From positions 96,927-160,926 of IMG/VR virus record IMGVR_UViG_3300042397_002774: 64,000 nt of DNA; one strand, given 5' to 3'. This DNA comes from a virus. The translations under genes and the position numbers were made by a program. Below are positions 9,259 through 42,800 of the stretch, one piece after another (positions within the stretch are counted from its first letter, which is position 1; the number at the start of each line of letters is the position of its first letter). The notes under the pieces were generated by a model that was not told the origin of the DNA, did not search any database, and saw only the letters and a list, made by a program, of their open reading frames with translations.

Positions 9259-10491
9259 TTATATTATTTTACCTATTACTATTATTTTATCTGCAGGTAC
9301 AAATTCATATTCTAACAATGTAGGATTTATTGTTAATATTGAATTTGATCCTACAGTTTCAAATGATACAATTGCTGATAATGGTATGTAAAGGCTATTA
9401 GCAGTAAATGTAAAGTTTGATAATGTAGGAGCAGGAACTAATGATCCTTGTGGTGGGTTCAATATACTAACACCAGCAAATACTGCTTGGGTTGGTGTTA
9501 CAGTTGTAGCTACTCTTGTATTATTTGTTTGTAAGTATTCAAGATCACTAGCTGCTACACTTACAAGAGTAATATTAGTTGATCCTTCAACAAATGATGT
9601 ACCACCACCTATATTTGGTCTAATTCCAATTGTTTGTACTTCTTCAGCATCACCTGTTGTAGTTTCTAAACCAAATACAACTTGGGATTTTGAATAAAAC
9701 ATATCACTATTAGCTAATTCTTTATTAATAGAATCCGGAATTATATACCCATTTAATGTAATACTAAATGTTGTTTTTGCAATTCTATCATTATCTGATT
9801 CTACTGACACTGTTGTAGCAAATGAATCGATTTTAGATCTAAATTGAAAACGTTTTGGATCACCCCAATATGAATCAGAAGCAAATTCTACAGCTTCAAC
9901 AATTTTATTATTTTGTTCTACATAGTTTGTAAATATAATACATTCATATGTTACAGTAACGTAATCAGGTACTACAGATACATAAAACTGAGATGATGGA
10001 ACTTTATTTGTTAATATTGAAAATTTATCATAATGGTTTTTAGCATTATATTTTGTTTCAAATACTTGAAATAAATGAGCTTTATTACCATCTATTTTAT
10101 TACCTAAAGTTCTATTTTTTTCAACATTATTACGTCTGAATACTATAATAGGAACTCTAACTTTATTATTTGAATCTCTTAAGAATCCATCCTGTTGTAT
10201 TGATTTCCATCTTTCAGGAGAACCATATATTATAGGAACATTAATCATTTCCCCATCTTGGAAGACTTGAGGTTTGATTGTGTTGTTAAAATAATATATA
10301 ATAGCTCCATCTAAGTCTTGTAAACCAATAGAAAAATCTTTTATTTTATCGTTTTTACGAGAAATTTCTTTAGCACGATTTTGAGTAAAAGAAGTAGTAG
10401 AAACTGGCTTGCCTATTGATTTATCATAGGCTGTTATTTGTGACTGTGCAGCCTCAAATGGTTTTGTTGTTTCTATAGATCTTTTTCTCAT
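9259..10491 (-). CDS. Tail terminator / sheath stabiliser (T4 gp15-like) with C-terminal extension
   Basis: 'VPIIYGSPERWK...RVPIIVFRR...VPDYVTVTYECIIFTNYVEQNNKIVE' pattern; follows neck genes. Confidence 0.6.
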   Translation of the reverse strand: MRKRSIETTKPFEAAQSQITAYDKSIGKPVSTTSFTQNRAKEISRKNDKIKDFSIGLQDLDGAIIYYFNNTIKPQVFQDGEMINVPIIYGSPERWKSIQQDGFLRDSNNKVRVPIIVFRRNNVEKNRTLGNKIDGNKAHLFQVFETKYNAKNHYDKFSILTNKVPSSQFYVSVVPDYVTVTYECIIFTNYVEQNNKIVEAVEFASDSYWGDPKRFQFRSKIDSFATTVSVESDNDRIAKTTFSITLNGYIIPDSINKELANSDMFYSKSQVVFGLETTTGDAEEVQTIGIRPNIGGGTSFVEGSTNITLVSVAASDLEYLQTNNTRVATTVTPTQAVFAGVSILNPPQGSLVPAPTLSNFTFTANSLYIPLSAIVSFETVGSNSILTINPTLLEYEFVPADKIIVIGKII

Positions 10492-10844
10492 TATATTCTA
10501 CCTTGCTTTTCTAAAGCCATTAATTTATCTAAAGCATTCATCGCTCTAAATAATTGATTGTATAATTTACTAATTTCTTTTGCTGTAGCAGCAATATCTG
10601 GATTTGTGGAGAAAGTGAATACATCAAATTCTCTTTTATTTTGAATAATATTTCTTTTAATACCATCAATTTTAGGTAGATTAATTACTTGAGAAGCAGA
10701 CATTTCAGGACGATTTGGATCCTGAGGTAATGGGACTAAAAGTCTTCCTGTTTTGTATAATTCTCTTTTTTGATCGGGAGTTAAGTCTGAAATAGTTACT
10801 TCAGGACTTCCCATAATTTCGTCTAATATATCTGTTAATTTCAT
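10491..10844 (-). CDS. Hypothetical protein with MKLxxILxE N-terminal tag
   Basis: Starts MKLTDILDE; coupled to neighbours. Confidence 0.7.
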   Translation of the reverse strand: MKLTDILDEIMGSPEVTISDLTPDQKRELYKTGRLLVPLPQDPNRPEMSASQVINLPKIDGIKRNIIQNKREFDVFTFSTNPDIAATAKEISKLYNQLFRAMNALDKLMALEKQGRI

Positions 10845-10846
10845 AA

Positions 10847-11185
10847 TTAATATTGTCCTACTTTTTCAATTGTTTGTAATCTAGGTAAAAATTGTAATAA
10901 ACCATCTACTTTATGAGTAGTTGATGCTGCAACTTTAATTTTTTGAATATCTTCTTCTGGTGTTGATGATACAATATATTTTAATTTTAATAAAGCAAAT
11001 TCAGCTACATTAGTTGCCTTTGCATCTAAAAAATCACTTTGTTGTACAGTTACAACTACAACTCCAGGAAGAGCTCTAACCTCATTATAAATCAATACTT
11101 GATTATAATTTGAATTAGTTTTTATCAATACTTCTATTTTGTATATAGATAAAATTTCGTTTAATATATTTTCTAGTTTTATCAT
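10847..11185 (-). CDS. Hypothetical protein with MIKLxxILxE N-terminal tag
   Basis: Start moved to ATG 11185 (MIKLENILNE), which overlaps the upstream stop; the 11227 start lies inside the previous gene. Confidence 0.7.
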   Translation of the reverse strand: MIKLENILNEILSIYKIEVLIKTNSNYNQVLIYNEVRALPGVVVVTVQQSDFLDAKATNVAEFALLKLKYIVSSTPEEDIQKIKVAASTTHKVDGLLQFLPRLQTIEKVGQY

Positions 11186-14592: not shown

Positions 14593-16185
14593 TTAAACAG
14601 TTTCTAAACCATGAACGATCACTTTACCATAGAATTCAGGACGAACCATTTTCTTAGCGTAACGAGTCATCAAACCTTTACGTGGAGTAAATGTTGTTGG
14701 ATCGTATACTAATGGAGTCATCATTACAGGGATGTAAGGAGCAAATACAGCACCAGTTTCTAAGAACTGAGCACCTTTATAACCCATCAAGATGATGTTT
14801 TCAGTGAAGTAAGGGTTTTTGTAAACTTTGTAACGGCTGTTTAAAGAACCGATCTTTTGGATACCGAAATTGAATTCAGCTTTATCACCATCACCATCAG
14901 AAGCAAATCCTGGGATTGATTCTAAGATAGTTGCAACAGTTGGAGATACTACTAAGAAGTTAGCACCACCACGTAATGTTAATTGGTGAATCTTGTTAGA
15001 TACTTTTTGTAACTTAGTACCTAAAGTTTGGAACCAACCACCTTGAGTGTTGAAGAAAGTGTTTGTTAAAGAAGCGAAAGCGCTACCGTTCCAAGCTACG
15101 TTGTTCTGAGCTGACCAATATTCAGTAGTTGAAGTTGGTACGTTCTTGATCAACATTTCTAAGATTTCTAAATCGATTTCCATAGAGATGTATTGGCTCA
15201 TCAAGCTAGTTAATTCAGCTTCAGCGTCGATTGAATGGTAAGCATTCAAATCTTGAGCGAATTCTGGAGTCCATTGTGCTTTTAACTTACGAGTTTTAGC
15301 AACAACTGCTTCAGACTTCATGTTAACGTCTAATGAAGGGATAACGATTTGAGAAGCGCTGTTAGCGTTAGGTACGCTGTAGTCAGCTCTGTCTTCGAAA
15401 TCACCACGAGCGTTATCACGGTTAGCTTTATTGTAGAATAAAGTTACAGTACCGTGAGCTGGAGAACCAGTTGCGATGAAGATCATATCATTACCAGATA
15501 CTTTAGTGTACTGAGGTAAGATTGTAGATTCGTCGAAGTTAGAACCACTAACGAAACAAGCTCTTGCAGCTTCTAAATCTTGGTCAGTTTGAGCAGCACC
15601 GTTAGTTACAGTGATTTTCTTTAAAGAACCTGTAGCTACAGTTGAATCGAAGTTAACGTCAGCTAACAATACAGAAGAAGTAGCTGCAGTTAAAGATGCA
15701 GAGAATTGGTTAATTGAATAACCGAATTTACCAACACCATATAAACCTTTAGTGATGTCAGTTGACTTTAAGTCAGCAGAAGCACCATATAAAGATCCAG
15801 CAAATGCTTTCTTATCAGTACCATACTTGAAATCAAGATAGAAGATAAGACCTGAAGGTAAGCTCATTGATTGAACTGAAACGAATTCTTTAGCGCTGAT
15901 ATCACCGAACACACGGCGAACTAACGGTAAAGCAACTCCAGCCCAGTTTTCACCAAAACCACCAGCACCGAAAGTAGCAGCACCACCACCTAAACCAGTT
16001 TGGTTGCTTTCTACTACTAATTGCTTAGCTTGGTTTTCTAATAAGATAGCCATGTTGTTTTTCTCAACTTCGCCTTTAAGACCTTCCAAAAGGCCAGACT
16101 TAGCCCACTTAGAGACTAAGGTGTTAGCTGTATCCATTACACGAGCGTAAGGATTAGCTGATTCTAATAATTGTTGAATTTCCAT
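14593..16185 (-). CDS. Major capsid protein (T4 gp23-like)
   Basis: 'LPLVRRVF', 'VSVQSMSLPSGLIFYL', 'AKTRKLKAQWTPEFAQDLNAYHSIDAEAEL', 'FAPYIP', 'FTPRKGLMTRYA'. Confidence 0.97.
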   Translation of the reverse strand: MEIQQLLESANPYARVMDTANTLVSKWAKSGLLEGLKGEVEKNNMAILLENQAKQLVVESNQTGLGGGAATFGAGGFGENWAGVALPLVRRVFGDISAKEFVSVQSMSLPSGLIFYLDFKYGTDKKAFAGSLYGASADLKSTDITKGLYGVGKFGYSINQFSASLTAATSSVLLADVNFDSTVATGSLKKITVTNGAAQTDQDLEAARACFVSGSNFDESTILPQYTKVSGNDMIFIATGSPAHGTVTLFYNKANRDNARGDFEDRADYSVPNANSASQIVIPSLDVNMKSEAVVAKTRKLKAQWTPEFAQDLNAYHSIDAEAELTSLMSQYISMEIDLEILEMLIKNVPTSTTEYWSAQNNVAWNGSAFASLTNTFFNTQGGWFQTLGTKLQKVSNKIHQLTLRGGANFLVVSPTVATILESIPGFASDGDGDKAEFNFGIQKIGSLNSRYKVYKNPYFTENIILMGYKGAQFLETGAVFAPYIPVMMTPLVYDPTTFTPRKGLMTRYAKKMVRPEFYGKVIVHGLETV

Positions 16186-16210: not shown

Positions 16211-17344
16211 TTAATATTTTGTTATACCTGCTAACTTTTGGAATCTAGAAATTTGTTCGTTTGTTTCAACGATTTGTTTGCTAGGTGCATTGCCAGCTGG
16301 TTTTGAAGCGAATCCTTTAATGATTCCTTCTTTTACCATACCTTTAGAAGTTTCTTTAGCTTCTAGAGACTCATTAAGAGCTTCGAATACTAATTTAGCT
16401 TCGTTTGGTGTTGATGCTTTATCAAAGGCGTTAATTACTTTGATTTTGTTGTCTTCTGATAAGTTTTTAGCTTTGAAGATCTTGTTAACATATAATAACT
16501 TAGCGTTTAATAAGTTAACTTCATTCAATTCGTTACGTAAAGTTTTGATTGTAGCAACTGCTTCATCTAATTCTTTTTCGTCTTTTTTAGCTTTCTTAGC
16601 TTCATCTACTACATCTTCAGTTGCTTCGTTTTCGTCTAAAGCATCTAATTCAGCTAATAGTTCTTCTAAGTTGATTTCATCTTCTGAAGATTCAGTTTCT
16701 TCTTCAGTACCATCTAATTCAACAGCATCATCTCCCATCATTTCTTCTTCATCTTCTGCACCTTCAGCGCCTAATTCAGAATCTACGATGTCTTTGATAA
16801 TGTCTTTTAAATCTTCAATAGATAAATCAGCTACTGATGTTTCTTCTTCAGATGTTTCATCTTCCATTTCTTCTTCAGTTTCTTCTTTACCTTCTCTCAT
16901 ACCAGAAGCGGCTGCGGCTCCTAATTTTTCTAATTCAGCATATGCCTTCTTAGCCATAGGTCCACCCTTCTTAATAAGAGATTTAATACCGTTGATGATG
17001 TTTTCTAAACCAGCACCAGCTGCATTTGATGGATCATATCCACTGCTTGCTCCGGTTACTTCGTCGATTTCTTCATCAGAACCTTCTTCAAGTTCTAATT
17101 CAGCTAAAAACTCGTCTAAATTCAACTCTTCTTCCATGTTTTCTTCATTGAAAGTTTCTACTTCTTCGATTTCTTCTTTAACATCTTCATCATCTTTTGC
17201 CATTTCTTCTAATTTAGAAGCTAACATAGATTGTAAATGAGGAGTTAAAGTTTCTTCAAGAGCAGCTTTTGCATTAACTAACGCAGCTTCGCGAATAGTT
17301 TTTGCTTCAGCAATTGCTTGCTTAAATAATTCTTTGTTTGTCAT
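16211..17344 (-). CDS. Prohead core scaffold protein (gp22-like)
   Basis: Very acidic coiled-coil protein immediately upstream of the capsid gene; many L/I-x-E sites; C-terminal RFQKLAGI. Confidence 0.85.
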   Translation of the reverse strand: MTNKELFKQAIAEAKTIREAALVNAKAALEETLTPHLQSMLASKLEEMAKDDEDVKEEIEEVETFNEENMEEELNLDEFLAELELEEGSDEEIDEVTGASSGYDPSNAAGAGLENIINGIKSLIKKGGPMAKKAYAELEKLGAAAASGMREGKEETEEEMEDETSEEETSVADLSIEDLKDIIKDIVDSELGAEGAEDEEEMMGDDAVELDGTEEETESSEDEINLEELLAELDALDENEATEDVVDEAKKAKKDEKELDEAVATIKTLRNELNEVNLLNAKLLYVNKIFKAKNLSEDNKIKVINAFDKASTPNEAKLVFEALNESLEAKETSKGMVKEGIIKGFASKPAGNAPSKQIVETNEQISRFQKLAGITKY

Positions 17345-17490: not shown

Positions 17491-19002
17491 TTAAGCAGCT
17501 ACTATTTTTTGTGCTAGTTGTATAACTTCTGCTGTTTTAAATGCTGCTGCTCCTCCTTCTAATCCTTTTATAACTAAATTAACGGCATTAGCAGCTTCAA
17601 ATCCTGAGGCTACAGCAGCTGCGGTTAATATAGCGGCATAAACTCCATGAGCGGCATCATATAACGGTGATGTTTGATCAAATGGGTCTTGATTACCAAA
17701 TTTTTTAGGATATGCTTTCTTTAACACATAAGAAATTGCTTCAATATATTTGTGTTCTAAGTCATGCCCCTTTTTTTGCAACCATTGTCCTACTTGTGTT
17801 TGTCCTACAGCTCCATAAGAAAAATAATTAGCAGCTCCATCAACAGCTTTACCAAGTAAATTTATTAAACCTGGAGCACCTGCAGTTAGCGCAAATAATG
17901 TAAGTGGTCCTAGTTCATTTATTTGTCCATCTTTAGGAGATGGTTTTATTGTTGATGCTGCAGATTTAAGATCTCCTAGTATATCTAGTAATCCTTTTTC
18001 AACTCCTTGCCCAACATTAGCTTCTACTTCAGTAATAATACCAGCTAATTGCTGCATTCTTATAATTTCATTGATATTAGATTTCATTTCTTGAATTTTA
18101 ATTTTTGTATTAGAAATACTATTTACTTTTTCTTCTATAGATTTTATAGTTTTATATAGATCTTTTAAAAATTCTTTATAACCTTCGGGGTTATGTTGTT
18201 TTATTTTAGATAAATATTCTAAATATTCTGATAGAGCATAATCTGAGTCGGAAGGTGTTCTTATTATTTGGCTTACAAAGTTAAATATTTTTTGGAAAAA
18301 TTTTCTACTACCTGTTCCATCTATAAATTCTTTTGTTTCAGTACTAATAATTTTAGTTTTACCTGCAAAATATTGTAATATGTTTAACAGTGCTTTTTCA
18401 ATCCTTTTAATATCTCCGGGATTATTTGTAGTATTTAATACTCTATCAGTTCCTGTTATTAAGGATTCAAAAAATTGACCAGTAAATGTTTGAAATTCAG
18501 CCCATGATTTGTAATAAATAGCTTCATCATTAGGATCATAAGCTTGTTTTAAATAATGGTGGTTTAAGGCAGGATCTTTAGCATGTATTAACTCATGTTT
18601 AAGAGTCTGTCTTAACCTTTCAATACCTGTATTTTCATTTCCAGTAACAGTTTTATAAAGTCTTTGATCAAAGTCTTGAAAACTATTAGGTCCCGGAAAA
18701 AATTGTTTAAAATAGGTTTGATTTATAAAAATCCAATTATCTGTTCTATTATTTTTATCATACGTAGAAAATTGACCTTTAGCATTTTTGTCAATAGCAC
18801 CAACACCAATTTCTACTTCTCCTTTTTCACCATCAGAATAGATGTATGATATTTTACCAGCAGACCAAACCTGCCCACTACTAGGAATATTTTTGGTTTT
18901 AATAATCTCAATTATTTCTGGGATTATTGTTTCTAGTTGTTGTCTTTCTTCAGGGGTAAGAGTTAAAGTTCCTTCTTCAATTATGTTTAGTAACTTTATC
19001 AT
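17491..19002 (-). CDS. Tagged two-module protein: HExxH metallopeptidase-like domain plus hydrophobic helical domain
   Basis: MIKLLNIIEE start, 'LKHELIHAKD', internal 'INEIIRMQQLAGIITE', Ala/Gly-rich hydrophobic C-terminal half. Confidence 0.65.
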   Translation of the reverse strand: MIKLLNIIEEGTLTLTPEERQQLETIIPEIIEIIKTKNIPSSGQVWSAGKISYIYSDGEKGEVEIGVGAIDKNAKGQFSTYDKNNRTDNWIFINQTYFKQFFPGPNSFQDFDQRLYKTVTGNENTGIERLRQTLKHELIHAKDPALNHHYLKQAYDPNDEAIYYKSWAEFQTFTGQFFESLITGTDRVLNTTNNPGDIKRIEKALLNILQYFAGKTKIISTETKEFIDGTGSRKFFQKIFNFVSQIIRTPSDSDYALSEYLEYLSKIKQHNPEGYKEFLKDLYKTIKSIEEKVNSISNTKIKIQEMKSNINEIIRMQQLAGIITEVEANVGQGVEKGLLDILGDLKSAASTIKPSPKDGQINELGPLTLFALTAGAPGLINLLGKAVDGAANYFSYGAVGQTQVGQWLQKKGHDLEHKYIEAISYVLKKAYPKKFGNQDPFDQTSPLYDAAHGVYAAILTAAAVASGFEAANAVNLVIKGLEGGAAAFKTAEVIQLAQKIVAA

Positions 19003-19006: not shown

Positions 19007-19615
19007 TTAGCATAAAGGACAAACTCCTGTTGCGTTACAAATAATTTCTGTAATTAATCCGTTTACTTTGCTATAGTCTTTACTAGATTGTACTTTTTTA
19101 CCTTCAGATAATGACATATAAGCACCCGGAGTTGATGGTACTGATACTAGATCCCAACATAATAATTCAAAATCGTCTTGTACCTCTACTGTTTCACCCA
19201 ATTGCTTAACACTACCCATACCACGAGATGAAATACCTAATGGAATGCCGGCTAGTACAATTTCTTGTGCAATTTTACCTGATGGTGTGTTTAATAATTC
19301 TAATTCACCCATTACATCATTACCTTCCCACCAAACCTTAGTGATTATATGAGAAACGTTATTTAAGTTAATAATTGATGATTCTGGGTGGTCTAATTCA
19401 CCTGTTGCTGTTCTAGTAGCTACAGGTCCTTTAGTATACATTTCTACTTGTTTTCTAAGAATATTCATAGGATAAACACGACCATTACCGTTTTTAACTT
19501 CGGCTTCTTGTAATTTACCTTTGATACGCATTCTAGTACCAGTTCCTTCTTTACCTTCAGATAAAGTAAGTTTAGCTACGTGGAATGGTGTATGATCTAC
19601 TAATAGTTGTTTCAT
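19007..19615 (-). CDS. Prohead protease (T4 gp21-like)
   Basis: 'KNGNGRVYP', 'GELDHP', 'GISSRGMGS', 'WDLVSVPSTPGA'. Confidence 0.95.
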   Translation of the reverse strand: MKQLLVDHTPFHVAKLTLSEGKEGTGTRMRIKGKLQEAEVKNGNGRVYPMNILRKQVEMYTKGPVATRTATGELDHPESSIINLNNVSHIITKVWWEGNDVMGELELLNTPSGKIAQEIVLAGIPLGISSRGMGSVKQLGETVEVQDDFELLCWDLVSVPSTPGAYMSLSEGKKVQSSKDYSKVNGLITEIICNATGVCPLC

Positions 19616-19617: not shown

Positions 19618-20718
19618 TTATTTACTATTTTCTTCTGCTAGTACTTCACGTACAATATTTTCTAATGTTGCTTTAAATTTATCAAAAGCAGCACCTACAT
19701 CTACTTTACCAATTGGTCTTAATGGGGTTAAAATATATGCGGTTGTTGGTAATCTGTCATCATGTTCTTCTACATCCTCTTCAACATTAAATTGTAATTT
19801 GAATTTTTCTAAAAGAGTTGATGGTAATTTTTCCCAATAACCATATCTTAATACGGCTCTATCACTATGTCTACCAATATTTTGTAAAATAAATTTATTT
19901 GAGTATGGATTTAGAGTATTATTCATCTCAATAAATTTTGCTGCTTGTTTAACAGTGTCATTTGGTTCTTCACCAGGAAACATATTTAATTTAGTTTCTT
20001 GAAGATTTTTTACAAATTCTTTACCTACATAATAGCTATCACCTTTTACTCTAATATAACCACCTTGAATAATTGGATTTTTTTCAATTCTTGCAGTTCC
20101 ATATTCTTTTTCACGTGGAGTTCTTGAACCAGCACCACTTTGTCTATATCTAGAATTAGGAATAATCACATAATCAATTTCAAAATATTCAGGAGTGTTG
20201 TCAATTACTTTAAATTCAATTGAAGATCCAGTATCACCCATATTTTGTCCAGTACCACCATATACTTTGTTAGCCCAGTCTAAATTTTCTTTAACAACCT
20301 TCATACCATTTTCTTTATCAACTAATTCACCTTTCTTTGGTGCTTTAGGAGATTTAGATTTAGCTTTTGCTTTTGGTCTTTCTTGATGAGAATCAATACC
20401 AGATAATTTTAATTGGCTATAATATGATGGATTTTCTTTTAAATGATCCATAGCAATTTTTTCTGCTTTTTTAGGATCATCTGTATGTTCCATTTCAACT
20501 TTAATACCCATTGCTAATTCAACAGGATTACATTGATATTCTTCTTTAGCTTCAGATAAAAGACCTTTGTTTTTTAAAATTTTAACTGAATCAGTAAATG
20601 ATGTTACATTAGTAATGTATTGGGGAAATGTCATACGAACAGCTCTCATAAAGTTAGCCTGAGATAAATTTCCTTCTACTAATTGGTTGTATTGATTTTG
20701 TATACTTTTCATATTCAT
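19618..20718 (-). CDS. Multi-module hypothetical protein containing a DUF5661-like unit
   Basis: 'ELAMGIKVEMEHTDDPKKAEKIAMDHLKENPSYYSQL'; modules separated by LxE/VxE sites; C-terminal LENIVREVLAE. Confidence 0.65.
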   Translation of the reverse strand: MNMKSIQNQYNQLVEGNLSQANFMRAVRMTFPQYITNVTSFTDSVKILKNKGLLSEAKEEYQCNPVELAMGIKVEMEHTDDPKKAEKIAMDHLKENPSYYSQLKLSGIDSHQERPKAKAKSKSPKAPKKGELVDKENGMKVVKENLDWANKVYGGTGQNMGDTGSSIEFKVIDNTPEYFEIDYVIIPNSRYRQSGAGSRTPREKEYGTARIEKNPIIQGGYIRVKGDSYYVGKEFVKNLQETKLNMFPGEEPNDTVKQAAKFIEMNNTLNPYSNKFILQNIGRHSDRAVLRYGYWEKLPSTLLEKFKLQFNVEEDVEEHDDRLPTTAYILTPLRPIGKVDVGAAFDKFKATLENIVREVLAEENSK

Positions 20719-20725: not shown

Positions 20726-20854
20726 TTATCGGCCTTGTCCTCTATATTTTTTAGGTTTTTGTTCTGTTGGGCCATAAGATTTTTTTGCTTTTCCGCTTAT
20801 CTTTTTACCAAATGAAACCTTTTGAGAAGAAGATGATGATTTTGTTTTTGCCAT
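20726..20854 (-). CDS. Small basic protein (42 aa) ending KKYRGQGR
   Basis: Hand translation MAKTKSSSSSQKVSFGKKISGKAKKSYGPTEQKPKKYRGQGR*; its ATG overlaps the upstream TAA; too short for the ORF track. Confidence 0.8.
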   Translation of the reverse strand: MAKTKSSSSSQKVSFGKKISGKAKKSYGPTEQKPKKYRGQGR

Positions 20855-32741: not shown

Positions 32742-33284
32742 TTATGCTTCTGCTGGTGGAGGAGTTTCTTCTGCTGGTGTTTCTTCAGGTGTAGCTGGGG
32801 TTTCAGCTCCTGATAAATCATTAAATGCTGCTTCGCCAGCATCTGGTGCTGCAGGAGCTTCTGGAGCTGCTGCGTCTGCAGGTACTGCTGTATTTGCATC
32901 TTCTTTAAGTGCAGGAGATAATGATAATAAATTTGATACAGCTTGGCTTGCTTTATCTATAGCACTACCCATAGCTAAATCATATCTTTTACCTGCTACT
33001 TTAGCTATAAAAGTACCACCTGAGTATACTAATTGGAAATCTAATCCATTGATTAATTCAATATTAAGAGTTGTTGGTTTTGGAGCAACAACAGTAACAC
33101 TGCTTAAATATCTACTAAATGAAGGAGACATTATTGATTCAACAGCATCTTTTAATTTAGGAAAACGATATATTAAATACAAAGATTTTTCAGCACGCTT
33201 GATTGCTTGCTCTTCCTCTTGCAATCTTTGTCTGATTGCTTTTTTAATATATTTTTCTAATAATATTTTTTTAGTATTCTCCAT
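32742..33284 (-). CDS. Hypothetical protein
   Basis: 180 aa; N-terminal [17 protein letters not shown]; acidic Pro/Ala tail. Confidence 0.7.
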
Positions 33285-33642
33285 TATTTTCCATTTCGTT
33301 AGCTTCTTCAGTTAAATATTGTTCTATACTATTCATATAATCTGAAGCTAAAGTAATATATGCAGATACCCAACCTGGTAATTGTTGGTTAGGTTCGATC
33401 ATTTTATAAATTTTAGAAGCATTTTCTACCATACTTCTTAGTTCACTTTTAGCCATTGTGGCTTCGTGATCTTCAGTTTTAGGCCAAGTTAAATGAGTTT
33501 CTTTAACTAAAGCTACAGCAATTTTTTTACGACGATTAGCAAGATAAGAATCTGTCTTATTTACTTTACCATCATTGTTGATGTCTTTATCTTCTTTACC
33601 CACTGGGTCTAAGCCTTCTACTAAATTTGATAATCTAATCAT
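33271..33642 (-). CDS. Hypothetical protein with EF-hand-like loop
   Basis: MIRLSNLVE tag then [12 protein letters not shown]. Confidence 0.7.
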
Positions 33643-33644
33643 TG

Positions 33645-34076
33645 TTATTTCATTGATTGTTTTGTAGCAGTTGCGTACATAACTTTTTCAGCGTCTTTGC
33701 CATATTTGTCAAAGCCATCTGATTTTTTCATTGCTTTAACATTTTTTTCTTTTTTAGCTTTTTCGCTTTTAGTCATCTTACGCTCTTTAACTGGTTTATC
33801 CATTGCTTTTAATTGTTCTTCAAGCTCTTTTTTCTTAGCTTCAAGTTCAGCAATGCTGTTATCCATATCATCCATCAAATCACCAATAATTTCTGTATCA
33901 ACATATTGATTAATATTTGTTGGAATAGCAGATTTAATATCGCTAGCTTCTTTGATATCTTCTTCGATTTTAGCAATTTTTGCACTAATTGCTGCTTTAT
34001 CACCAGCCTCATCGATCATTCTTAAACGTTCTCCGATAGCTTCTTTAATAATTTGGCGTAATTGATTAGTATTCAT
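33645..34076 (-). CDS. Hypothetical coiled-coil protein
   Basis: Starts [16 protein letters not shown]; own ATATTTAT motif at 34091-34099. Confidence 0.7.
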
Positions 34077-34106: not shown

Positions 34107-35123
34107 TTAGTCTAAATCTTGTAATCCGGTATCATCTTTTGTTAAATCACGAGCAATATCTCTTATTTCCATTTCAGCCCAGCGTTTTTGAGAAGATGTT
34201 AATGTACCGTTGATTGCATTTTCAACAAACGGAAAAAATTCATTATCAGATAATTTATAAACAGATGCAAAAAACAGTTCACGAACACGTGGATCATCCA
34301 CATCCGATGAAATATATAAATCATTAATAGCATCATATATAAATTTACCATAACGTAAATCTTCAGGTTCATTTGAAACCTTATCTACAGCATTAATAAT
34401 TGATTGATTTTTTTCTTTATCTGATCCGAATCCTTCTGTACCTACGATTTCATATAATCCTTTTATAATTTCATGAACTAACATAGGAAAACACATTGCT
34501 TGTGCTTTAATTATAAATTGATCATTTTCATCATCGTATTCCATTTCACTTTCACCACCCTGCATTTTAGCACCTTGTGCAATTGCTGCTAACATCATTG
34601 CAATAGCATTATCATCATCATAAGTACCAAATACTAATTTTAATATTTCACTATATTTGCTTACTAATTCTGGATTGATTTGGTCAATGTATTCTTTGAA
34701 TAACATAAATGCAAAAGCTCCTCTAACAGATGCTCCTTGAGTAATACCGTTAATAAGACGACGTTTTGCTTTCATCTTTTCAGGATCATCTTCACCAAAA
34801 TCAGGTTGTGAAGGATCTTCATTGTTAGGATTCATCTCAATATCCATATCATTACCTATACTAGCAATAATTTTAATATTAGCATAGTCAATAATTGGAT
34901 AAGCATCAGTAACCATTTGGATAGCTATTGCCTCTAATTCATCTCTATATCCTTCTTCAGCAGCTATAATTTGGTCTAATACTTCTTTAGAGCGCATCAT
35001 TGTTTGCATTAATGGTCTATTACCAACCATTTGGCGCAATGATTCACCAGACTTACCTTTCAAAGCAGACATGGTGTTAGGTGAAAATATTTTGTCGTAT
35101 TCTACTTCTAATAATTTTGCCAT
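34107..35123 (-). CDS. Hypothetical helical protein
   Basis: 338 aa; 'KRRLINGITQGA', 'FPMLVHEIIKGLYE'. Confidence 0.7.
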   Translation of the reverse strand: MAKLLEVEYDKIFSPNTMSALKGKSGESLRQMVGNRPLMQTMMRSKEVLDQIIAAEEGYRDELEAIAIQMVTDAYPIIDYANIKIIASIGNDMDIEMNPNNEDPSQPDFGEDDPEKMKAKRRLINGITQGASVRGAFAFMLFKEYIDQINPELVSKYSEILKLVFGTYDDDNAIAMMLAAIAQGAKMQGGESEMEYDDENDQFIIKAQAMCFPMLVHEIIKGLYEIVGTEGFGSDKEKNQSIINAVDKVSNEPEDLRYGKFIYDAINDLYISSDVDDPRVRELFFASVYKLSDNEFFPFVENAINGTLTSSQKRWAEMEIRDIARDLTKDDTGLQDLD

Positions 35124-35374
35124 TATTTTTTAGATTGAAATCTTTTAACAATTTTATCTACCATTTCTTCTTCATTCATTGAAGCCTTTGGTTTTGGTTT
35201 AACATCAGGATTTCCCAATGGACGACGAGGTTTTGGTTTATCAGTACCAGGTTTAGCTGGTATTGTTGTAGGTTCTGGGCTAACGCCTGGTTTTGAAGGA
35301 GCTACTGCTGGGCCTTCAGCTAATACTTTCTCTATCACTTCACGGATAGTTTCTTTTAATTTACTTATTTGCAT
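35123..35374 (-). CDS. Small Pro/Lys-rich hypothetical protein
   Basis: Starts MQISKLKETIREVIEKVLAE. Confidence 0.7.
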   Translation of the reverse strand: MQISKLKETIREVIEKVLAEGPAVAPSKPGVSPEPTTIPAKPGTDKPKPRRPLGNPDVKPKPKASMNEEEMVDKIVKRFQSKK

Positions 35375-37985
35375 TCTTTTTTTCGTTTATATGTTTACGA
35401 AGTAATTCTTTAAATTCTTTTATATGACCTGGATGATCTGCTAAATATTCATTTACAATATACTGATGTGCTTCTGCCAATCCTCGTTGTTGTAATGCTG
35501 TTAATAAATCTGCAGGTGAAGCTAATGGAAACGCATTATTACCACCTTCATTACCTGTTAATATATAGTTACTATTACCTGGTTGTACATTAATAGATGC
35601 TATCACTTGTTGGTTAGCTAATCTAATAATATATATTTTACTAGCACCAATTTGAATTACTCGTCCTACTCTACCTGATGTACCTAATAAGTTATTACGA
35701 CGAGAAGCACCTCTATCACCATTTGGATCAACACGGGATGCATTATTAACATTTAATCTTCTTAATATAGCTCTTGGTAAACGTAAATATGCTACTTCTA
35801 ATCCAATTGCATTCATTTCTTCACGAACGTTTATATCACCTGCTGCTGGAGCTGCGGCTGCCTGACGAGGAGCATTTGGTACACCTGCTGGTCTACCTCT
35901 TCTACCTGTTGTAGTAGCACCTGCAGCAGCGGCAGCTGGTGCAGCAGTACCTAACATTTGTGCTGCTTTAGAAGCAGGAATATTAGCAACAACTAATTTA
36001 CCTGAATTAGAAGATACTGTGTAGCTTGTTCTTGGATTTGTTGTATTAATAATGTAAGGAATACCTTCATAAATAACAGATCTAAGTACACTACCAGCTT
36101 GCATTGGGGGGTTAGCTCCAATAATAGCTTTTCTAATATCACCACCGGAATAACTGCTTACATTTTTTATAGCATTTATATAGTCATTATCACTAAATGC
36201 TAAATTCTTAGATCTTAAGTAATCAAACCATGCAGAATATACTAATCCATTTGCAATAGGTGAATTTCTAATTTGTTGCCTCCAATCCATTCCTGACCGT
36301 CCATAAACTGCTGTAAATATCAGACTAGTTGTACTTCTTTCTAAATATTGAATAAAAAATGGAGAATCAGGACTTTCAGTTGTAAGTACAACTGCTGGTC
36401 TTCCATCCCACTCAATAATTCTTTTATCTGCAGGTATAGATTTTAATAATGAAACAAATGCATCTTTATCTATAGTATTAGGAATATTATCTCTAACATT
36501 AAGTAATGATAATGCATTCTTTTGGAATCCTTCATTATCTTTTTGTTGTGTAAATACTTCTTGTACCTCTTCATCATCGAATGGTACTTTAGAAACTTTA
36601 TCACCGTCTATTTTATAAGATACAAATGAATTAGAATCAATTAATATTGTTTTGTTATTAATATCTTTAGCAATAATAGCTGAGTTGCTGTCTGTTTTTG
36701 CTTTTTCGATTACGTTATCTAATACACTTTTATCAATTACTTCATTAGAAACTAATGTTATTAAATTTTTAAAAGGAATCTTATCTAAATCTGGGTAGTC
36801 TAATAAGTAACGTGATGTACGTTTATTTAATTTAATATTAGGATAATCATCATCTTCAGTATATAATCCTACTTTAATGTCTTCACCAAAAGTTAATTTA
36901 ATAATACTTTCATTATCTTTGGTAACATATATCCTTTCATTTTTAGGAACATCCCATTTATCAAATTTAACTAAAAATTTCTTAATTTCAAATGAAATAG
37001 AATCTAGAGTTAGATATTTCAACTCTATTTTATCTCTCATATTTGCTATGATTGATCTTGTATCTCCATTTGAGAATTTATCTAAATTTTTAACTAAAGT
37101 TATACTATTTAAAATACCAAAATTAGTAGCAATAGTATTAGCAATTTGTGGATATTTTGGTAAGTATTTTTCTACAAAAGTATCATTACTAATATCTTGG
37201 AATAATTCTCTACCTTTTCTAACAACTAAATATTGTTCTTTAGCTTTAAAAGGAAGTTTAGCCCACTCTCTAACACCAATGGGATTATTTTTATATAATT
37301 GATTTATTTTTTCTTTGTTAGATAAAGGAATATATTTGAATACACTTCTTAAACCAGTAACTGAAGGGAAATTTTGTTCAATAAAGCTCCATGGTTCCCA
37401 TCTATCCCATTCTGTAGCTCTACCACCAACATCATTATTTGATCTGTCTGATGCTTTATAAGTGTCATCTTTACCAACAACCACAACAAAGAAACTCTTA
37501 CGATCGCTATTAGGTAAATTTGTATCTTTTACTAAATAAAATGTTGGGTTTTTTCTATTATCATCATAACGATAGTTACCAAATGAACCTCTGGTAATAC
37601 ACCAAGATTCACCTCTACCGAAATTTAAACAGTTTTCTTCTTTAGAACCATTATATATAATTAAACCATTCTGGTCATAAACCACATCTGGAGTAATGTC
37701 AACTTCTTCTTCAGGTTCTTCAACACCTTTAGTTGAAGTTACTAATTTTATTAATTTAGATAAACTATATTTACGTAAATCTTTTTCAGTAACTTTAGGT
37801 GAATTTTTTAAAGAATCAAAACGTTCAATATATGCTTTTAATTTATCATCAGCAATTTCAATATTTAAATCATCAGCTTCTTCTTTAAATTTAGTCATCA
37901 ATTTATTAATCTCACCTTCTGAGTATTCATTAAGGGAAAATAAATTGTGTGTTACGTGAATTATGAATTTGTCAATTGCTCTCAT
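35361..37985 (-). CDS. Large hypothetical protein
   Basis: 874 aa; 'FGRGESWCIT' unit; AT-hook-like GRRGRP. Confidence 0.75.
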   Translation of the reverse strand: MRAIDKFIIHVTHNLFSLNEYSEGEINKLMTKFKEEADDLNIEIADDKLKAYIERFDSLKNSPKVTEKDLRKYSLSKLIKLVTSTKGVEEPEEEVDITPDVVYDQNGLIIYNGSKEENCLNFGRGESWCITRGSFGNYRYDDNRKNPTFYLVKDTNLPNSDRKSFFVVVVGKDDTYKASDRSNNDVGGRATEWDRWEPWSFIEQNFPSVTGLRSVFKYIPLSNKEKINQLYKNNPIGVREWAKLPFKAKEQYLVVRKGRELFQDISNDTFVEKYLPKYPQIANTIATNFGILNSITLVKNLDKFSNGDTRSIIANMRDKIELKYLTLDSISFEIKKFLVKFDKWDVPKNERIYVTKDNESIIKLTFGEDIKVGLYTEDDDYPNIKLNKRTSRYLLDYPDLDKIPFKNLITLVSNEVIDKSVLDNVIEKAKTDSNSAIIAKDINNKTILIDSNSFVSYKIDGDKVSKVPFDDEEVQEVFTQQKDNEGFQKNALSLLNVRDNIPNTIDKDAFVSLLKSIPADKRIIEWDGRPAVVLTTESPDSPFFIQYLERSTTSLIFTAVYGRSGMDWRQQIRNSPIANGLVYSAWFDYLRSKNLAFSDNDYINAIKNVSSYSGGDIRKAIIGANPPMQAGSVLRSVIYEGIPYIINTTNPRTSYTVSSNSGKLVVANIPASKAAQMLGTAAPAAAAAGATTTGRRGRPAGVPNAPRQAAAAPAAGDINVREEMNAIGLEVAYLRLPRAILRRLNVNNASRVDPNGDRGASRRNNLLGTSGRVGRVIQIGASKIYIIRLANQQVIASINVQPGNSNYILTGNEGGNNAFPLASPADLLTALQQRGLAEAHQYIVNEYLADHPGHIKEFKELLRKHINEKKNANK

Positions 37986-38404
37986 TATTTATTAAACTTT
38001 ACTTTTGCTTTATCTGTATTAGATACAAATTGCTTACCTTTTTTAGACCCAGCTACTTTTTTACGTGATGTAGCAGCGCGTTCAGCTTTAGTTAAACGAT
38101 TTGCCTTAGCACGAGGTAAACAACGAGTTGTTGCTTTATCTTTTTTCATTGTACCACAAGGACCAGTTATGTTACCTTGTGTATCAATACGAACCCAATC
38201 TTCTTTTTTAAACCAATCACGAAGAGATTCATGTAAATCTAAATCATCTTCTTCCATTAATCCTTTACATACCTTAACAGCACGACCAGAAAGATAAGCT
38301 GATGGTTTTTCACCAGCAGCTCTGCGACGATCATAATAAGCTTTACCTTTTTTGCAAAGCTTTTCTACAATGATCTGGTCTAGTATTTCTTGTAATTTAA
38401 TCAC
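37985..38404 (-). CDS. Basic hypothetical protein (DUF5872-like)
   Basis: MIKLQEIL tag; 'PSAYLSG', 'LHESLRDWFKKEDWVRI...CG...CLP'. Confidence 0.65.
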   Translation of the reverse strand: MIKLQEILDQIIVEKLCKKGKAYYDRRRAAGEKPSAYLSGRAVKVCKGLMEEDDLDLHESLRDWFKKEDWVRIDTQGNITGPCGTMKKDKATTRCLPRAKANRLTKAERAATSRKKVAGSKKGKQFVSNTDKAKVKFNK

Positions 38405-38664
38405 AATTTTTGAATTTTGATTACCAACGAGCCATTGCCTTTAATAGTGCGATGCCAGGTATGTTTTGGTATAAATATCGATTTATTTATAAGTGTTGGT
38501 AATTCGTCTTCAAGTTGTATAAACCAATCTGTGGGTTGTGTGGGTTCAATAAGACGGTCTTCATTATCACGATGCCAAAGAAGTTCGATGGGATCTATAT
38601 TTTCATCGAACTCTCTAATAACATATTCTTTTGTTATCTCTAAATCAGTATAAGGATGACTCAT
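38401..38664 (-). CDS. Small cupin-like protein
   Basis: 'LWHRDNEDR...IFIPKHTWHRTIKG'. Confidence 0.65.
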   Translation of the reverse strand: MSHPYTDLEITKEYVIREFDENIDPIELLWHRDNEDRLIEPTQPTDWFIQLEDELPTLINKSIFIPKHTWHRTIKGNGSLVIKIQKL

Positions 38665-39074
38665 AACAATATTTCATCTGGTACTTTAAACTGCCATATA
38701 GTAGCTTTACCCTTTTGTAGCATCAATGCTGTAAGTCTAGTATTACCACCAATCAATTCTTTGTATCCATCTGAATATAAAGCAACAATTGGCATTTCTA
38801 CATTGCCTGCTTCAATTTGAGCTAATGCTCTTTTTTGTTTTTCTGGGTTTAAAGTTTTAAAAGTACTTGGTTCATCTGCGTTAGTATTATTTATATCCTT
38901 TGCAGAAGTTAAATTAACAGGTTTACCAGTCTTAGCTAATTCTACCCATTTAGCTTTACCTAATTTTTTAAATTCAGGATAGCGTTTTGCTTCCATCCAT
39001 TCTTTTTCAAAATTAGGATTGCTATATTGAACAGAATCTGTAATTTCTTTTAATATGTCGAATAATTTAATCAT
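38661..39074 (-). CDS. ParB/sulfiredoxin-like domain protein
   Basis: MIKLFDILKE tag (ATG 39074); 'MPIV...ELIGGNTRLTAL'. Confidence 0.6.
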   Translation of the reverse strand: MIKLFDILKEITDSVQYSNPNFEKEWMEAKRYPEFKKLGKAKWVELAKTGKPVNLTSAKDINNTNADEPSTFKTLNPEKQKRALAQIEAGNVEMPIVALYSDGYKELIGGNTRLTALMLQKGKATIWQFKVPDEILL

Positions 39075-39997: not shown

Positions 39998-40579
39998 TTA
40001 CGATTGGGTTATTGCTTTTACCTTCTCAATATATTCCTGGAACTCTTTAACTAATTCGCTATTATTCCCACCAGACCATTGTTCCATTTCACCATTCTCA
40101 GTAACAATTTGTTCTGGGTGTACATCATTAATTAAATCTTGTAATATTTGTTCAAGATCACCAATAAATCCTTTAGCGTTACGTTGAACCATGTCTTGAA
40201 CATATGCTTCGTATTGACCATCTAAACGTAATTTAGTTTCTCTTGTAATAACACAATCAAAGCATTCTTTATGTATTGCATACATTTTAGTATCCAATAC
40301 TTTTTTCTTCATTGCTTTACCGCACTTAGGACATGTAAGAGGAATTTGAAGGGCTTTCTTAACTAAATCTAATTTGGATATGGTCATCTTGATACCATTT
40401 TTAATGGTCCAATTTTTCCCATTTTCTTCCCAAATATCGCCTTCTTTACGATCAATATTTTCTTTAGTATAACCTACTTGAGTTGAGATCTTATCTCCGT
40501 ATTTTTTATTTACTATATTTCTTACTCTCTGTACATCTTTTTCTCGAAACTCTTTTTTCAAAACACTTTCATTCATCAT
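39998..40579 (-). CDS. Zinc-finger hypothetical protein
   Basis: CPKC...CFDC. Confidence 0.7.
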   Translation of the reverse strand: MMNESVLKKEFREKDVQRVRNIVNKKYGDKISTQVGYTKENIDRKEGDIWEENGKNWTIKNGIKMTISKLDLVKKALQIPLTCPKCGKAMKKKVLDTKMYAIHKECFDCVITRETKLRLDGQYEAYVQDMVQRNAKGFIGDLEQILQDLINDVHPEQIVTENGEMEQWSGGNNSELVKEFQEYIEKVKAITQS

Positions 40580-41964
40580 AAACCTAATTCTTTTAATTGT
40601 TGAATTGTATCAGCAGCTGAAGTATGTAATACACCTACACCACCTGCATCCTTCCATCTTTGAATATTATCTGCTCTATCATCAATCAATATTGATTTAG
40701 GAGACGCATAAAATTGTTTATACTCTGCTGATTTAAGAAGTAATACTGTACCTGGGAGATTTTGTTCTACCCATTTTTGTTTTCCTGTTCTTGAAGATTC
40801 TTGTCTTGAAGGAGCTGAAAGTAATTTAGGAGAATATGGTTTAATGTAATTCCATAGTTCTTGACCATCTTCCATCCACTCCATTTCAGTCCAAAATGAT
40901 TCACCAGCATCAGTTATTGGTTGCCAAAAATCAGCATCACCCTTAACATGATTTCCTCTAATATTTTTGCCTGTTAGTTTTTCATAAGCACCTTCAAAGT
41001 CAACAATAACACCATCCATATCGCAATAGATTCTGTATTGTGGTGATTGTGCTTCGAATATCATAGGATTAATTTGTGCAAATTTTCTCATTATTTGCCC
41101 TGCTTTAGAATTTGCTTCGTTTTCAGTATCAGAACCTGTAGTTCCGTCTAAAGGTTGACCTTTTTGTTTTTGTGATAAGTGTACCAATTCATGAGAAACA
41201 GTTCGGCAAATATCAGCCATATTACGGTTACCCGTATAAATCCAAATCTTGTCGTCTTGTGGACTATATAACCCCATTGACCTCATTTCTCTCGCTTTCT
41301 CCGTATCCCTACTTATCACGATTTTTCCCCCTCCCCCCTCAATACCCAATTCACGTAGGGTAAATCTAATGAACTCCTTTAATAAAGACAAGTTTTCTTG
41401 GCCTTCTTTTAACTCTTCTTTTTCCGTGTCGCCCATTGTATAACCAGCAGCATCCATGAATTGCTTCACATCAATACCATCTGGTAAAAATTTTTTGATT
41501 AGGTCTTCTTTTTTAGATTTAATTGCTATTCTAAAATTAGTAGCACTTATATTATCAAATGTTCCTGCATTAAATAATTCAGCATTTCTATATTTTTCAT
41601 TTGAAAGAATAGAATTAAAACGAGTAAATTCATCTTTACCAAATGCTGCTACAATTTTAGCTTCTGGATTTGATGTAATTATGTCATAGGTTTCTCTAAC
41701 AGGATTTTCATCTACAACTAAAAAATTAACATTTCCTGGCAGTAAGGTTTTATATAATTCCCACACTCTATAACTTTCATCAGCTGTAATTCCTTCACGA
41801 GTTTTAGGAGAGATAAAGACTTGAACTTCATCACACATATCTGATAAGCGTTTAACAACATTAAAATGACCTTTATGTGGTGGTTTAAATGCACCTGGGA
41901 ATACACCAATAACGTATTGTTTTTCCTCTAATAATTGTTTTGCTATGTGTTGTCCTAAATTCAT
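40576..41964 (-). CDS. Three-domain fusion: HxGH nucleotidyltransferase + HExxH domain + HAD 5'(3')-nucleotidase-like
   Basis: 'FPGAFKPPHKGH...ISATNFR'; 'RTVSHELVH...ENEAN'; 'IYCDMDGVIVDF...LIDDRADNI'. Confidence 0.85.
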   Translation of the reverse strand: MNLGQHIAKQLLEEKQYVIGVFPGAFKPPHKGHFNVVKRLSDMCDEVQVFISPKTREGITADESYRVWELYKTLLPGNVNFLVVDENPVRETYDIITSNPEAKIVAAFGKDEFTRFNSILSNEKYRNAELFNAGTFDNISATNFRIAIKSKKEDLIKKFLPDGIDVKQFMDAAGYTMGDTEKEELKEGQENLSLLKEFIRFTLRELGIEGGGGKIVISRDTEKAREMRSMGLYSPQDDKIWIYTGNRNMADICRTVSHELVHLSQKQKGQPLDGTTGSDTENEANSKAGQIMRKFAQINPMIFEAQSPQYRIYCDMDGVIVDFEGAYEKLTGKNIRGNHVKGDADFWQPITDAGESFWTEMEWMEDGQELWNYIKPYSPKLLSAPSRQESSRTGKQKWVEQNLPGTVLLLKSAEYKQFYASPKSILIDDRADNIQRWKDAGGVGVLHTSAADTIQQLKELGL

Positions 41965-42800
41965 TACTGCACAAATGATTTTACTTTAGATATAATTTCT
42001 GATTCAGATAAAACGGATTCTTTAATTTTTTTATCAATATTAATGAATTCGCGTTCTAGCTGCTCTACTTGTTTTTTATAGTTTTCTCTTGATTTTTCTG
42101 ACGCTTTATCCTTTTTAGCCTGCTCATCAGGTGATAAAGGTTCATCTTGAGTTTTACGAAAAGTTGATATAAACTGTTCTGGATTTGTTTGAGTTAATTG
42201 TTCTAACCAATCAAATAATTTACCTTGTTGAACGGCTTGATTAAACCCATTAATTTCTTTTTGATACTCTTGATCAGGAGCTTGATATAATACAAAATTA
42301 TCTCCTAATTTATTTTTATAAGTATCTATATTTCCATAAACATTATTCCATGTTTGGATAACACCAACTTTAGGTACTCTACGTTCACGTTTGAAATTCC
42401 TTAAAAATGATACAATTGGGTGAGCATACACCATAATCATTAATGTATCATAATTAGACGCAGTGTTTAATAAACCTGGTACTTCTTTTCTTTTATATAG
42501 ACCACCGATTAATTTAGCGGCATTAGATGCGGTAGTATCCCAAATAAACGCCTTACCTGATGAAAGTGCATTAGGTACGTCAACATCATCTACTTGAGCA
42601 GAAGCCGCTGTAAGATTGTTGAACATTTCACTTGATTTATCTTCAATGTACTTATCTGGGTTGATTATTTCAAACCCAGGTGTTACACCTTTAATTTTAT
42701 TTATTAAAGTAGACTTCCCAGCTCCGGCGCCTCCCGCCATGATTATCATTTTATTTTGAGGCATTGCTGCTTCCATTAATAAGTCAATTAATCTGATCAT
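41964..42800 (-). CDS. P-loop kinase (zeta-toxin/AAA_33-like)
   Basis: MIRLIDLLME tag; 'MAGGAGAGKS', 'INPD', 'IWDTT', 'RNFKRERRVP'. Confidence 0.75.
   Translation of the reverse strand: MIRLIDLLMEAAMPQNKMIIMAGGAGAGKSTLINKIKGVTPGFEIINPDKYIEDKSSEMFNNLTAASAQVDDVDVPNALSSGKAFIWDTTASNAAKLIGGLYKRKEVPGLLNTASNYDTLMIMVYAHPIVSFLRNFKRERRVPKVGVIQTWNNVYGNIDTYKNKLGDNFVLYQAPDQEYQKEINGFNQAVQQGKLFDWLEQLTQTNPEQFISTFRKTQDEPLSPDEQAKKDKASEKSRENYKKQVEQLEREFINIDKKIKESVLSESEIISKVKSFVQ

Follow-up and report, generated by a model that had tools for sequence, protein, structure and literature searches.

Short leader peptides that recur on otherwise unrelated proteins were recognized in a viral DNA stretch of 64,000 nucleotides (positions 96,927 to 160,926 of the IMG/VR record IMGVR_UViG_3300042397_002774), and they are best read as address peptides for the prohead that are clipped off after use, one of them mimicking the C-terminal tail of the scaffold protein; we put the probability of this reading at about 65%. 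The stretch, below called the window, makes up the final 64 kb of one phage contig of 160,926 bp. Three leader types are distinguished in it, i.e., tag A (consensus M-I-K-L-x-x-I-L-x-E), tag B (R-M-Q-x-L-A-G-I, which is at the same time the C-terminal peptide of the scaffold) and tag C (originally described as L-x-x-I-I-K/R-E). Tags A and B are found on well over 100 unrelated protein families in related IMG/VR contigs, and every sequence test that was run, including positional enrichment, conservation at the peptide level, leader swapping, protease-type sites, depletion of such sites in the tagged bodies, and the scaffold motif, fits the idea of prohead addressing. From these sequences we infer packaging of the tagged proteins, their cleavage, and their delivery with the DNA.

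Nearly all genes of the window lie on the minus strand, and among them is a T4-type head-assembly set that consists of a gp23-like capsid protein, an acidic scaffold, a gp21-family protease, a portal protein and a large terminase, with the gene order protease-scaffold-capsid. The phage is distantly T4-like, with Flavobacteria as its probable host. In the proposed mechanism, the leaders would act during prohead assembly and dock their proteins either in the scaffold core or on the inside of the capsid shell, tag B occupying the site that is used by the scaffold's own C-terminal tail. The protease would then cut at (L/I)-x-E, and this would free the scaffold from the shell, split fused cargo into its modules and remove the leaders. 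The mature bodies, which would have been selected to lack internal cut sites, would remain in the head and might subsequently enter the host with the DNA, as the T4 internal proteins do, the latter being the least supported step.

Leaders and tagged proteins in the window

Tag A is N-terminal in 7 window proteins, the open reading frames (ORFs) of which start at 10844, 11185, 19002, 33642, 38404, 39074, and 42800 on the minus strand (the ORF at 38404 has a GTG start and its first residue is read as Met), and an internal copy is located at 21147. Copies of tag B are found at the scaffold C-terminus (16246), inside a 503-aa protein (18060), at residue 10 of a 225-aa protein (22664), and at the C-terminus of a 386-aa protein (27869). 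N-terminal tag C copies lie at 28967, 34061, 35359, and 61969, and further copies of this tag occur inside the scaffold (16810) and at the C-terminus encoded in 19618-20718. All motifs listed in the original prediction were recovered in place on the minus strand. Its estimate of about 20 tagged proteins was too high, since the count is 13-14, comprising 7 tag A starts, 1 internal tag-A-like copy, 1 tag B start, 4 tag C starts (one of these proteins also ending in tag B), and the scaffold. Membership of the tag C group is doubtful for two of the proposed proteins, namely the one with the C-terminal copy in 19618-20718 and the one encoded by 61628-61984 in the baseplate module. Two of the tags had been described as shared with the scaffold; this stands for tag B, which is the scaffold C-terminus, whereas tag C fits the scaffold N-terminus better than the internal L-K-D-I-I-K-D that had been cited.

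A six-frame regular-expression (regex) scan over the whole 160,926-bp genome gave 4 matches to the tag B pattern, all 4 in real ORFs. The strict tag A pattern was matched 8 times, with 6 of these matches in real ORFs that all lie within the window, and the strict tag C pattern was matched 5 times, in 4 cases at 5-10 residues from the N-terminus. All 12 N-terminally tagged ORFs fall in the window, which contains 63 of the 183 genome ORFs of at least 70 aa (hypergeometric P = 1.3e-6). The tagged proteins and the head genes among which they are found are as follows:

10491..10844, minus strand: 117-aa basic tag A protein, tag at 10818-10844, sole (L/I)-x-E at the tag end; its L077 orthologue retains the tag
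10847..11185, minus strand: 112-aa tag A protein with the motif at its N-terminus, tag at 11156-11185
14593..16185, minus strand: major capsid protein, T4 gp23-like (phrog_138, 2.6e-67)
16211..17344, minus strand: scaffold, 377 aa, acidic, between protease and capsid gene as T4 gp22; C-terminal tag B at 16223-16246
17491..19002, minus strand: 503-aa two-module protein with tag A (18973-19002), HExxH domain (18076-18972), tag B (18037-18060), and a C-domain
19007..19615, minus strand: prohead protease, T4 gp21 family (phrog_207, 4e-54)
19618..20718, minus strand: head-module protein with Pfam match to DUF5661 (2.5e-9); its C-terminal L-E-N-I-V-R-E-V is the doubtful tag C copy
20854..22014, minus strand: 386-aa head-module protein, internal tag-A-like M-K-L-N-D-I-I-E (21124-21147) at a fusion junction
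22014..22691, minus strand: 225-aa protein with a full N-terminal tag B leader (22632-22691), between portal and protease
23579..25441, minus strand: portal protein (phrog_213, 1.1e-56)
25475..27052, minus strand: large terminase
27837..28997, minus strand: 386-aa Ala/Glu/Lys-rich protein with tag C leader (28947-28982) and C-terminal tag B variant R-M-Q-Y-Y-A-G-I-K-K (27846-27869)
33271..33642, minus strand: 123-aa protein with tag A variant M-I-R-L-S-N-L-V-E (33616-33642)
33645..34076, minus strand: 143-aa tag C protein, leader at 34041-34076, grouping with tag A leaders in regex-free N-terminal clustering
35123..35374, minus strand: 83-aa tag C protein rich in Pro and Lys, with a leader (35339-35374) that is shared by its orthologues in genomes G002 and G003
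37985..38404, minus strand: 139-aa very basic tag A protein with GTG start, DUF5872-like, leader at 38363-38404, mature pI about 10
38661..39074, minus strand: 137-aa tag A protein, tag at 39045-39074, sole (L/I)-x-E at the tag end
41964..42800, minus strand: 278-aa tag A protein, P-loop kinase-like, with weak matches to AAA_33 and Zeta_toxin; tag at 42771-42800
61628..61984, minus strand: doubtful member of 118 aa, encoded in the baseplate module, its leader tag-C-like

The leader of the 225-aa protein agrees with the lineage consensus M-K-x-Q-I-N-E-I-K-R-M-Q-Q-L-A-G-I-I-x-E, and some relatives of the DUF5661 protein begin with tag B variants. In the family of the protein encoded by 27837..28997, both ends, i.e., tag C and the tag B variant, are conserved in 7 loci; this protein is coiled-coil-like and rich in cut sites. 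Most tagged window proteins had no match in Pfam and PHROGs searches. Among the labels that had been attached to the bodies, the kinase was borne out by tagged relatives of 41964..42800 that reach a Zeta_toxin match of 3.3e-17, and the HExxH assignment by its H, E, H, D, and a downstream E, which are invariant in 45 sequences of relatives; the "ParB-like" body found no family match and the "EF-hand-like" one a weak match. Pfam searches with 80 tagged-body representatives gave single cases of PhoH, Imm5, Zeta_toxin/AAA_33, SET, LRR, WYL_2, DUF5872, and a few other DUFs.

Occurrence of the leaders in related genomes

Back-translated patterns of the 8-residue tag B core and of tag A were searched in IMG/VR, and at least 120 loci were found with each. 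Viral tag B copies have two placements: the core starts at residue 10 of small, diverse proteins, in the context M-K-x-Q-(I/L)-N-E-(I/V)-K-[core]-(I/L)-x-E, or it stands at the end of scaffold homologues of 350-460 aa that adjoin capsid genes. Tag A is located at the first Met of an ORF of at least 50 aa in 130 of the 140 in-frame matches listed, and most of the matching contigs have genes in common with the window. Five further complete or near-complete genomes (G001-G004 and Flavobacterium phage vB_FspM_immuto, hereafter immuto) contain 8-13 tagged ORFs each. In 596 Gb of bacterial genomes the tag B pattern was matched 64 times, against approximately 50 matches estimated by chance, and none of these was in a stereotyped or phage-type context. 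Mimicry of a host protein was rejected as an explanation, since the frequency of the motif in bacterial genomes is that of chance and its contexts there are random.

In the first locus set, tag A occupies residue 1 in 45 of 1,663 ORFs, where 0.24 would be predicted by how often it occurs internally; this represents an enrichment of about 180-fold. Tag C was N-terminal 11 times versus 1.4 expected, and tag B was N-terminal in 102 cases, C-terminal in 59, and internal in 5. Every synonymous codon is in use where Arg, Gln, Leu, Ala, Gly, and Ile are conserved, and this free variation indicates selection at the level of the peptide rather than of the DNA; the idea of a DNA-level cassette or recombination linker was rejected on this basis. 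The bodies behind the leaders are unrelated, as had been claimed, since 178 tagged ORFs in related loci form 105 body clusters. When N-terminal 12-mers were clustered without any regex, with links allowed only between different body families, tag B was recovered on 106 ORFs of 66 body families, and tags A and C came out as one continuum of 79 ORFs and 38 body families. Lipoprotein signal peptides were also recovered and served as a built-in positive control. The clustering moreover yielded a fourth leader, present on 20 ORFs of 6 families and absent from the window genome. Its sequence, M-A-D-N-F-D-M-K-x-F-L-x-E-N-K-L, was seen in L008, L015, L037, L099, and other loci, and at positions 1803, 117631, and 118632 of immuto.

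A word-seeded protein search with residues 1-40 of the 225-aa protein retrieved 8 close orthologues only. When 50,697 deposited phage records were searched by tblastn with the tag B leader and the scaffold tail, only immuto was found, which was also the only record with an N-terminal tag B. In the immuto record (L001, MW353175) the scaffold is annotated as "DNA polymerase phi-like", a 104-aa tag A protein as TiaS, and a fourth-leader protein as cobalamin adenosyltransferase; these deposited annotations look wrong.

The minus-strand ORF at 40576-41964 and its counterpart L122:6245-8164 encode a fusion of a cytidylyltransferase/NMNAT-like domain with a 5'-nucleotidase-like domain; the homologue in Microcystis phage Mel-JY01 begins with the tag-A-like M-G-K-L-I-N-I-L-L-S-E, and the leader of the immuto 5'-nucleotidase is similar, which suggests that nucleotide-metabolism enzymes may also be addressed by such leaders. 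Genome G004 has two tandem capsid-protein paralogues of 565 and 567 aa at positions 97830 and 99601 (loci L158 and L159), possibly a gp23/gp24-like duplication; the capsid protein is single-copy in the window genome.

Protease-type sites, exchanged leaders and fused modules

Judged by sequence pattern alone, the leaders end in a site of the T4-protease type, (L/I)-x-E. Tag A leaders have Glu at residue 10 in 31 of 38 cases, with I/L at residues 7-8, and in about 50 of 63 tag B leaders the core is followed by I/L-x-E. The same triplet is depleted behind the leaders. With one representative per family, the observed/expected ratio of (L/I)-x-E was 0.82 in tagged bodies, and 0.71 in proteins of at most 200 aa, versus 1.19 in control bodies; in the same tagged bodies the reversed triplet reached 1.27, and (L/I)-x-D, -Q, and -K reached 1.20-1.28. 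Not a single (L/I)-x-E site is present in 47 of 109 tagged bodies, where 27.5 such bodies would be expected. The depletion was repeated in an independent set selected by tag A (0.85 vs 1.17), in which (V/M)-x-E was also low (0.79), and binomial P values against the reversed triplet were 1.1e-5 and 2.8e-3. Three small tag A proteins of the window have their sole (L/I)-x-E at the tag end. Such depletion fits bodies that have been selected to survive a protease with this specificity.

Leaders are exchanged between homologous bodies, in agreement with the original prediction. One body stands behind tag A in L098, and its counterpart in L073 (59% identical) behind tag B, the switch occurring exactly at the L-N-E junction. 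Homologues of the 33271..33642 body likewise carry either tag A (L085) or tag B (L045). Sites of this type also join fused proteins. The 442-aa polyprotein of L073 (7352-8677, plus strand) consists of three modules joined at L-N-E sites, and the body of 10847..11185 is 50% identical to the third of these, the alignment beginning at the L-N-E junction. The first part of this polyprotein contains two repeats of a module of about 150 aa, each following a tag B; the repeat module is probably the source of the Imm5 match in the set.

The internal tags of the window are located where relatives have separate genes. Residues 287-386 of the protein encoded by 20854..22014 are 76% identical to a separate 99-aa gene product of L077, which starts exactly there with a tag-C-like leader, and the body of 38661..39074 recurs as the C-terminal module of a 419-aa L054 protein. 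In the 503-aa protein, tag B is flanked by I-N-E and I-T-E, and the C-domain behind it (17494-18027) is 54% identical to a stand-alone 201-aa protein that begins with tag B. Hydropathy analysis shows two moderately hydrophobic segments in this C-domain, which could be a membrane-active ejection protein. The C-domain, also present as L122:21742-22467, is conserved beside the capsid gene as far as Mel-JY01.

The HExxH domain of the same protein was searched body-first, i.e., with the leader removed, against 1.84 billion representative proteins, and its family was found to comprise 87 representative clusters, the domain beginning at residue 11-30 in most. At least 6 kinds of leader are found on its members. 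Besides tags A, B, and C and the fourth tag, two further ones occur, and each kind ends in (L/I/V)-x-E right before the body. The two further leaders read M-K-I-L-I-N-E-D-Q-L... and M-N-L-N-E-Q-I-S-R-I.... The AF2 model of the domain has a pLDDT of 87.9, and fold searches with it gave no convincing match in the PDB (Foldseek E >0.01; best VIA Z 7.3 on generic helices; Z 5.2 with CapP and 5.3 with DPP III). By its modeled structure the domain may represent an undescribed metallopeptidase-like fold.

Scaffold tail, known systems and alternative explanations

Scaffold homologues were found in 47 related loci. The C-terminal motif R-(M/W/F/I)-(Q/K)-x-L-A-(G/N/D)-(I/L), followed by 0-3 residues, is kept in the window, immuto, G001-G004, Mel-JY01, LR756508, and RM378, and the T4 gp22 C-terminus has no such terminal motif. 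The capsid protein of the window is 57.7% identical to that of immuto, the closest among deposited relatives, 49% to that of Mel-JY01, 48% to that of LR756508 (a 484-kb uncultured phage), and 37% to that of Rhodothermus phage RM378, to which the motif extends. The window scaffold has 17 (L/I)-x-E sites and is similar to tag C leaders at its N-terminus (97th percentile). Most relatives have an I-V-E site some 8 residues upstream of the scaffold tail; cutting there would free the tail from the scaffold, and the site resembles the maturation site of herpesviruses. In the protease, which is 35% identical to T4 gp21, the G-E-L-x-H-P and S-S-R-G-x-G-S blocks are kept; they presumably contain the catalytic His and Ser.

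Scaffold proteins with C-terminal coat-binding tails are known from phage P22 and from herpesviruses, where a maturation cleavage site accompanies the tail, and the SaPI1 protein CpmB mimics the scaffold of phage 80-alpha. The lineage described here is alike in the conserved peptide at the extreme scaffold C-terminus, in the occurrence of the same peptide on other proteins, and in the protease-type site a few residues upstream. It differs in that most copies stand near the N-terminus of cargo proteins, with a cut site behind them, and in that many unrelated proteins carry the peptide instead of one competing scaffold; binding of tag B to the capsid protein is putative here. Encapsulin cargo-loading peptides likewise send diverse cargo into an HK97-fold shell by means of a short peptide, but they are C-terminal and are not removed, whereas the present leaders are mostly N-terminal and are followed by cut sites; moreover, the encapsulin shell is DNA-free, in contrast to a true phage capsid with scaffold, protease, DNA, portal, and terminase. 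No relation in sequence to the encapsulin peptides was found, and none was searched for.

The nearest analogue is the capsid-targeting sequence (CTS) of T4. The internal proteins of T-even phages are diverse and have in common only a conserved CTS that places them in the scaffolding core (PMC3012670); the T4 sequence is given in PMC8442874, and T4 propeptides of 10-20 residues, including that of gp24, are removed by gp21 (PMC5694885). As in T4 (IPI-III, Alt, and the gp24 propeptide), an N-terminal leader of 10-20 residues that ends in (L/I)-x-E precedes unrelated proteins, and it is accompanied by a gp21-family protease, a gp22-like scaffold, a gp23-like capsid protein, and a variable set of cargo genes; the T4 gp24 leader, M-A-K-I-N-E-L-L-R-E, even looks like tag A. 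Unlike T4, which has one kind of leader, the window has at least 3 and the lineage at least 6; each genome has 8-13 tagged genes, and the body families number well over 100. One of these leaders equals the scaffold C-terminal peptide that is missing from T4 gp22, and leaders also mark internal module junctions of polyproteins. In giant phages (phiKZ, 201phi2-1, and SPN3US), head and ejection proteins of particular paralogue families have propeptides of 80-160 residues that are cut at A/S/G-x-E (PMC5694885); these too are protease-removed N-terminal propeptides thought to target the prohead, and they differ from the present leaders, which have 10-25 residues, are freely exchanged between families, and end in (L/I)-x-E. 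The designation of an undescribed system had gone too far with respect to the mechanism, which has been described for T-even phages (PMC3012670), but it stands for the tag set itself, which was in no paper found; a literature search for the motif strings likewise returned none.

Several observations weigh against prohead addressing. The likeness of the leaders to the T4 CTS is not significant (66th percentile compared with tag C leaders, and 81st for the gp22 N-terminus), and T4 is therefore an analogue in form and not a demonstrable homologue. We infer the cut-site specificity of the protease from its 35% identity with gp21. Scaffold and cargo variants of tag B, compared within genomes, do not co-vary, so that the receptor could not be deduced from them. 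Some tagged genes of immuto and G003 lie among genes for replication and nucleotide metabolism, and late expression is consequently not assured. A literature search for virion proteomics of immuto or Mel-JY01 returned none. Tag C is the weakest and least specific of the three tags, and a slightly relaxed regex for it also matches the conserved N-terminus of the large terminase. The gene of the doubtful tag C protein (61628..61984) immediately precedes baseplate wedge genes of the gp25-like and gp6-like types. Protein and leader are conserved together in G002, G003, G004, and immuto, and this may be a tail or baseplate protein instead of head cargo. Finally, the tagged bodies are mostly acidic across the lineage (median pI 4.9), and the T4 internal proteins are basic and DNA-bound. 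Basic DNA-binding cargo as in T4 had been considered as a general description, and it applies to the majority of the tag A proteins in the window but not lineage-wide.

The tag-C-like N-terminus of the large terminase (25475-27052), N-I-K-D-I-I-K-Q-E-Y, is conserved in its orthologues across the lineage. This likeness may be due to chance or to a common type of helix, and it calls for caution with tags that are assigned by pattern only.

Some of the acidic tagged bodies may be transient core parts rather than injected cargo. An explanation that extends this to all tagged proteins, as additional scaffold-like parts of the prohead core that are loaded by their leaders and degraded or expelled at maturation without ever being delivered, is considered unlikely. 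It would account for the tagged genes inside the head module between the portal and capsid genes, for the many small, acidic bodies that resemble T4 gp67 and gp68, and for the coiled-coil-like, site-rich 386-aa protein that carries both tag C and tag B. The depletion of (L/I)-x-E, and in particular the excess of site-free bodies, argues against it, as do the enzyme- or effector-like bodies (Zeta-toxin-like kinase, SET, Imm5, LRR, and HExxH).

Rather less likely is an explanation in which the leaders are only processing or inhibitory propeptides and polyprotein junctions, without a targeting function, on proteins that remain cytoplasmic. The cut-site motif at the end of each leader and the joining of polyproteins at L-N-E would be accounted for, but such a site takes 3 residues and yet 8-20 residues upstream of it are conserved, and tag B also terminates the scaffold, where nothing follows that could be released. 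Furthermore, proteases of the T4 type are thought to act within the prohead, so that their substrates are needed there, as is established for T4 (PMC5694885).

The shared peptides might also dock neither on the capsid shell nor on the scaffold core but on another common partner, for which a chaperonin of phage or host, the membrane assembly site, and the portal come into question. Immuto has a GroES/GroEL of its own annotated in its record, and the lack of co-variation mentioned above would be in line with such a partner; the position of the motif, which throughout a deep clade stands at the very C-terminal end of the scaffold, and the lack of any stereotyped context for it in bacterial proteins, make this improbable. 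In other tailed phages and in herpesviruses it is the scaffold C-terminus that contains the coat-binding element.

That amphipathic N-termini resemble each other by chance where the genome is AT-rich, or that the tags are cassettes for translation starts or for recombination at the DNA level, could be argued from the short, low-information tag C and its match in the terminase, but it is already contradicted for tags A and B by the enrichment at residue 1, the chance-level matches in bacteria, the free synonymous codons, and the occurrence of tag B at C-termini, and it is very improbable altogether.

Prohead addressing by removable leaders is accordingly preferred as the reading of these peptides. 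A more far-reaching version of it is tentative, and we consider it short of an even chance: the leaders would form an "address code" that copies docking elements of the scaffold (the C-terminal tail in tag B, and perhaps the N-terminal helix in tag C), cargo would enter the prohead as pseudo-scaffold subunits that are released by the protease, and an aquatic T4-like clade, including relatives among cyanophages, a Rhodothermus phage, and 480-kb megaphages, would carry a large, fast-evolving arsenal of injected effectors that can be read from their leaders. The principle is known from T4, and the gain lies in breadth and mechanism and not in a new concept. If the addressing role is correct, the link between tag B and the scaffold tail suggests that cargo may be loaded into a T4-type head by competing for the docking site of the scaffold. 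In that case the leaders could also possibly be used to package foreign proteins into capsids, and they would provide a sequence-only label for the virion-carried, and possibly host-delivered, proteins of a large uncultured group of aquatic phages. Most tagged proteins are small orphans, and hundreds of orphan families would thereby gain a place and time of action.

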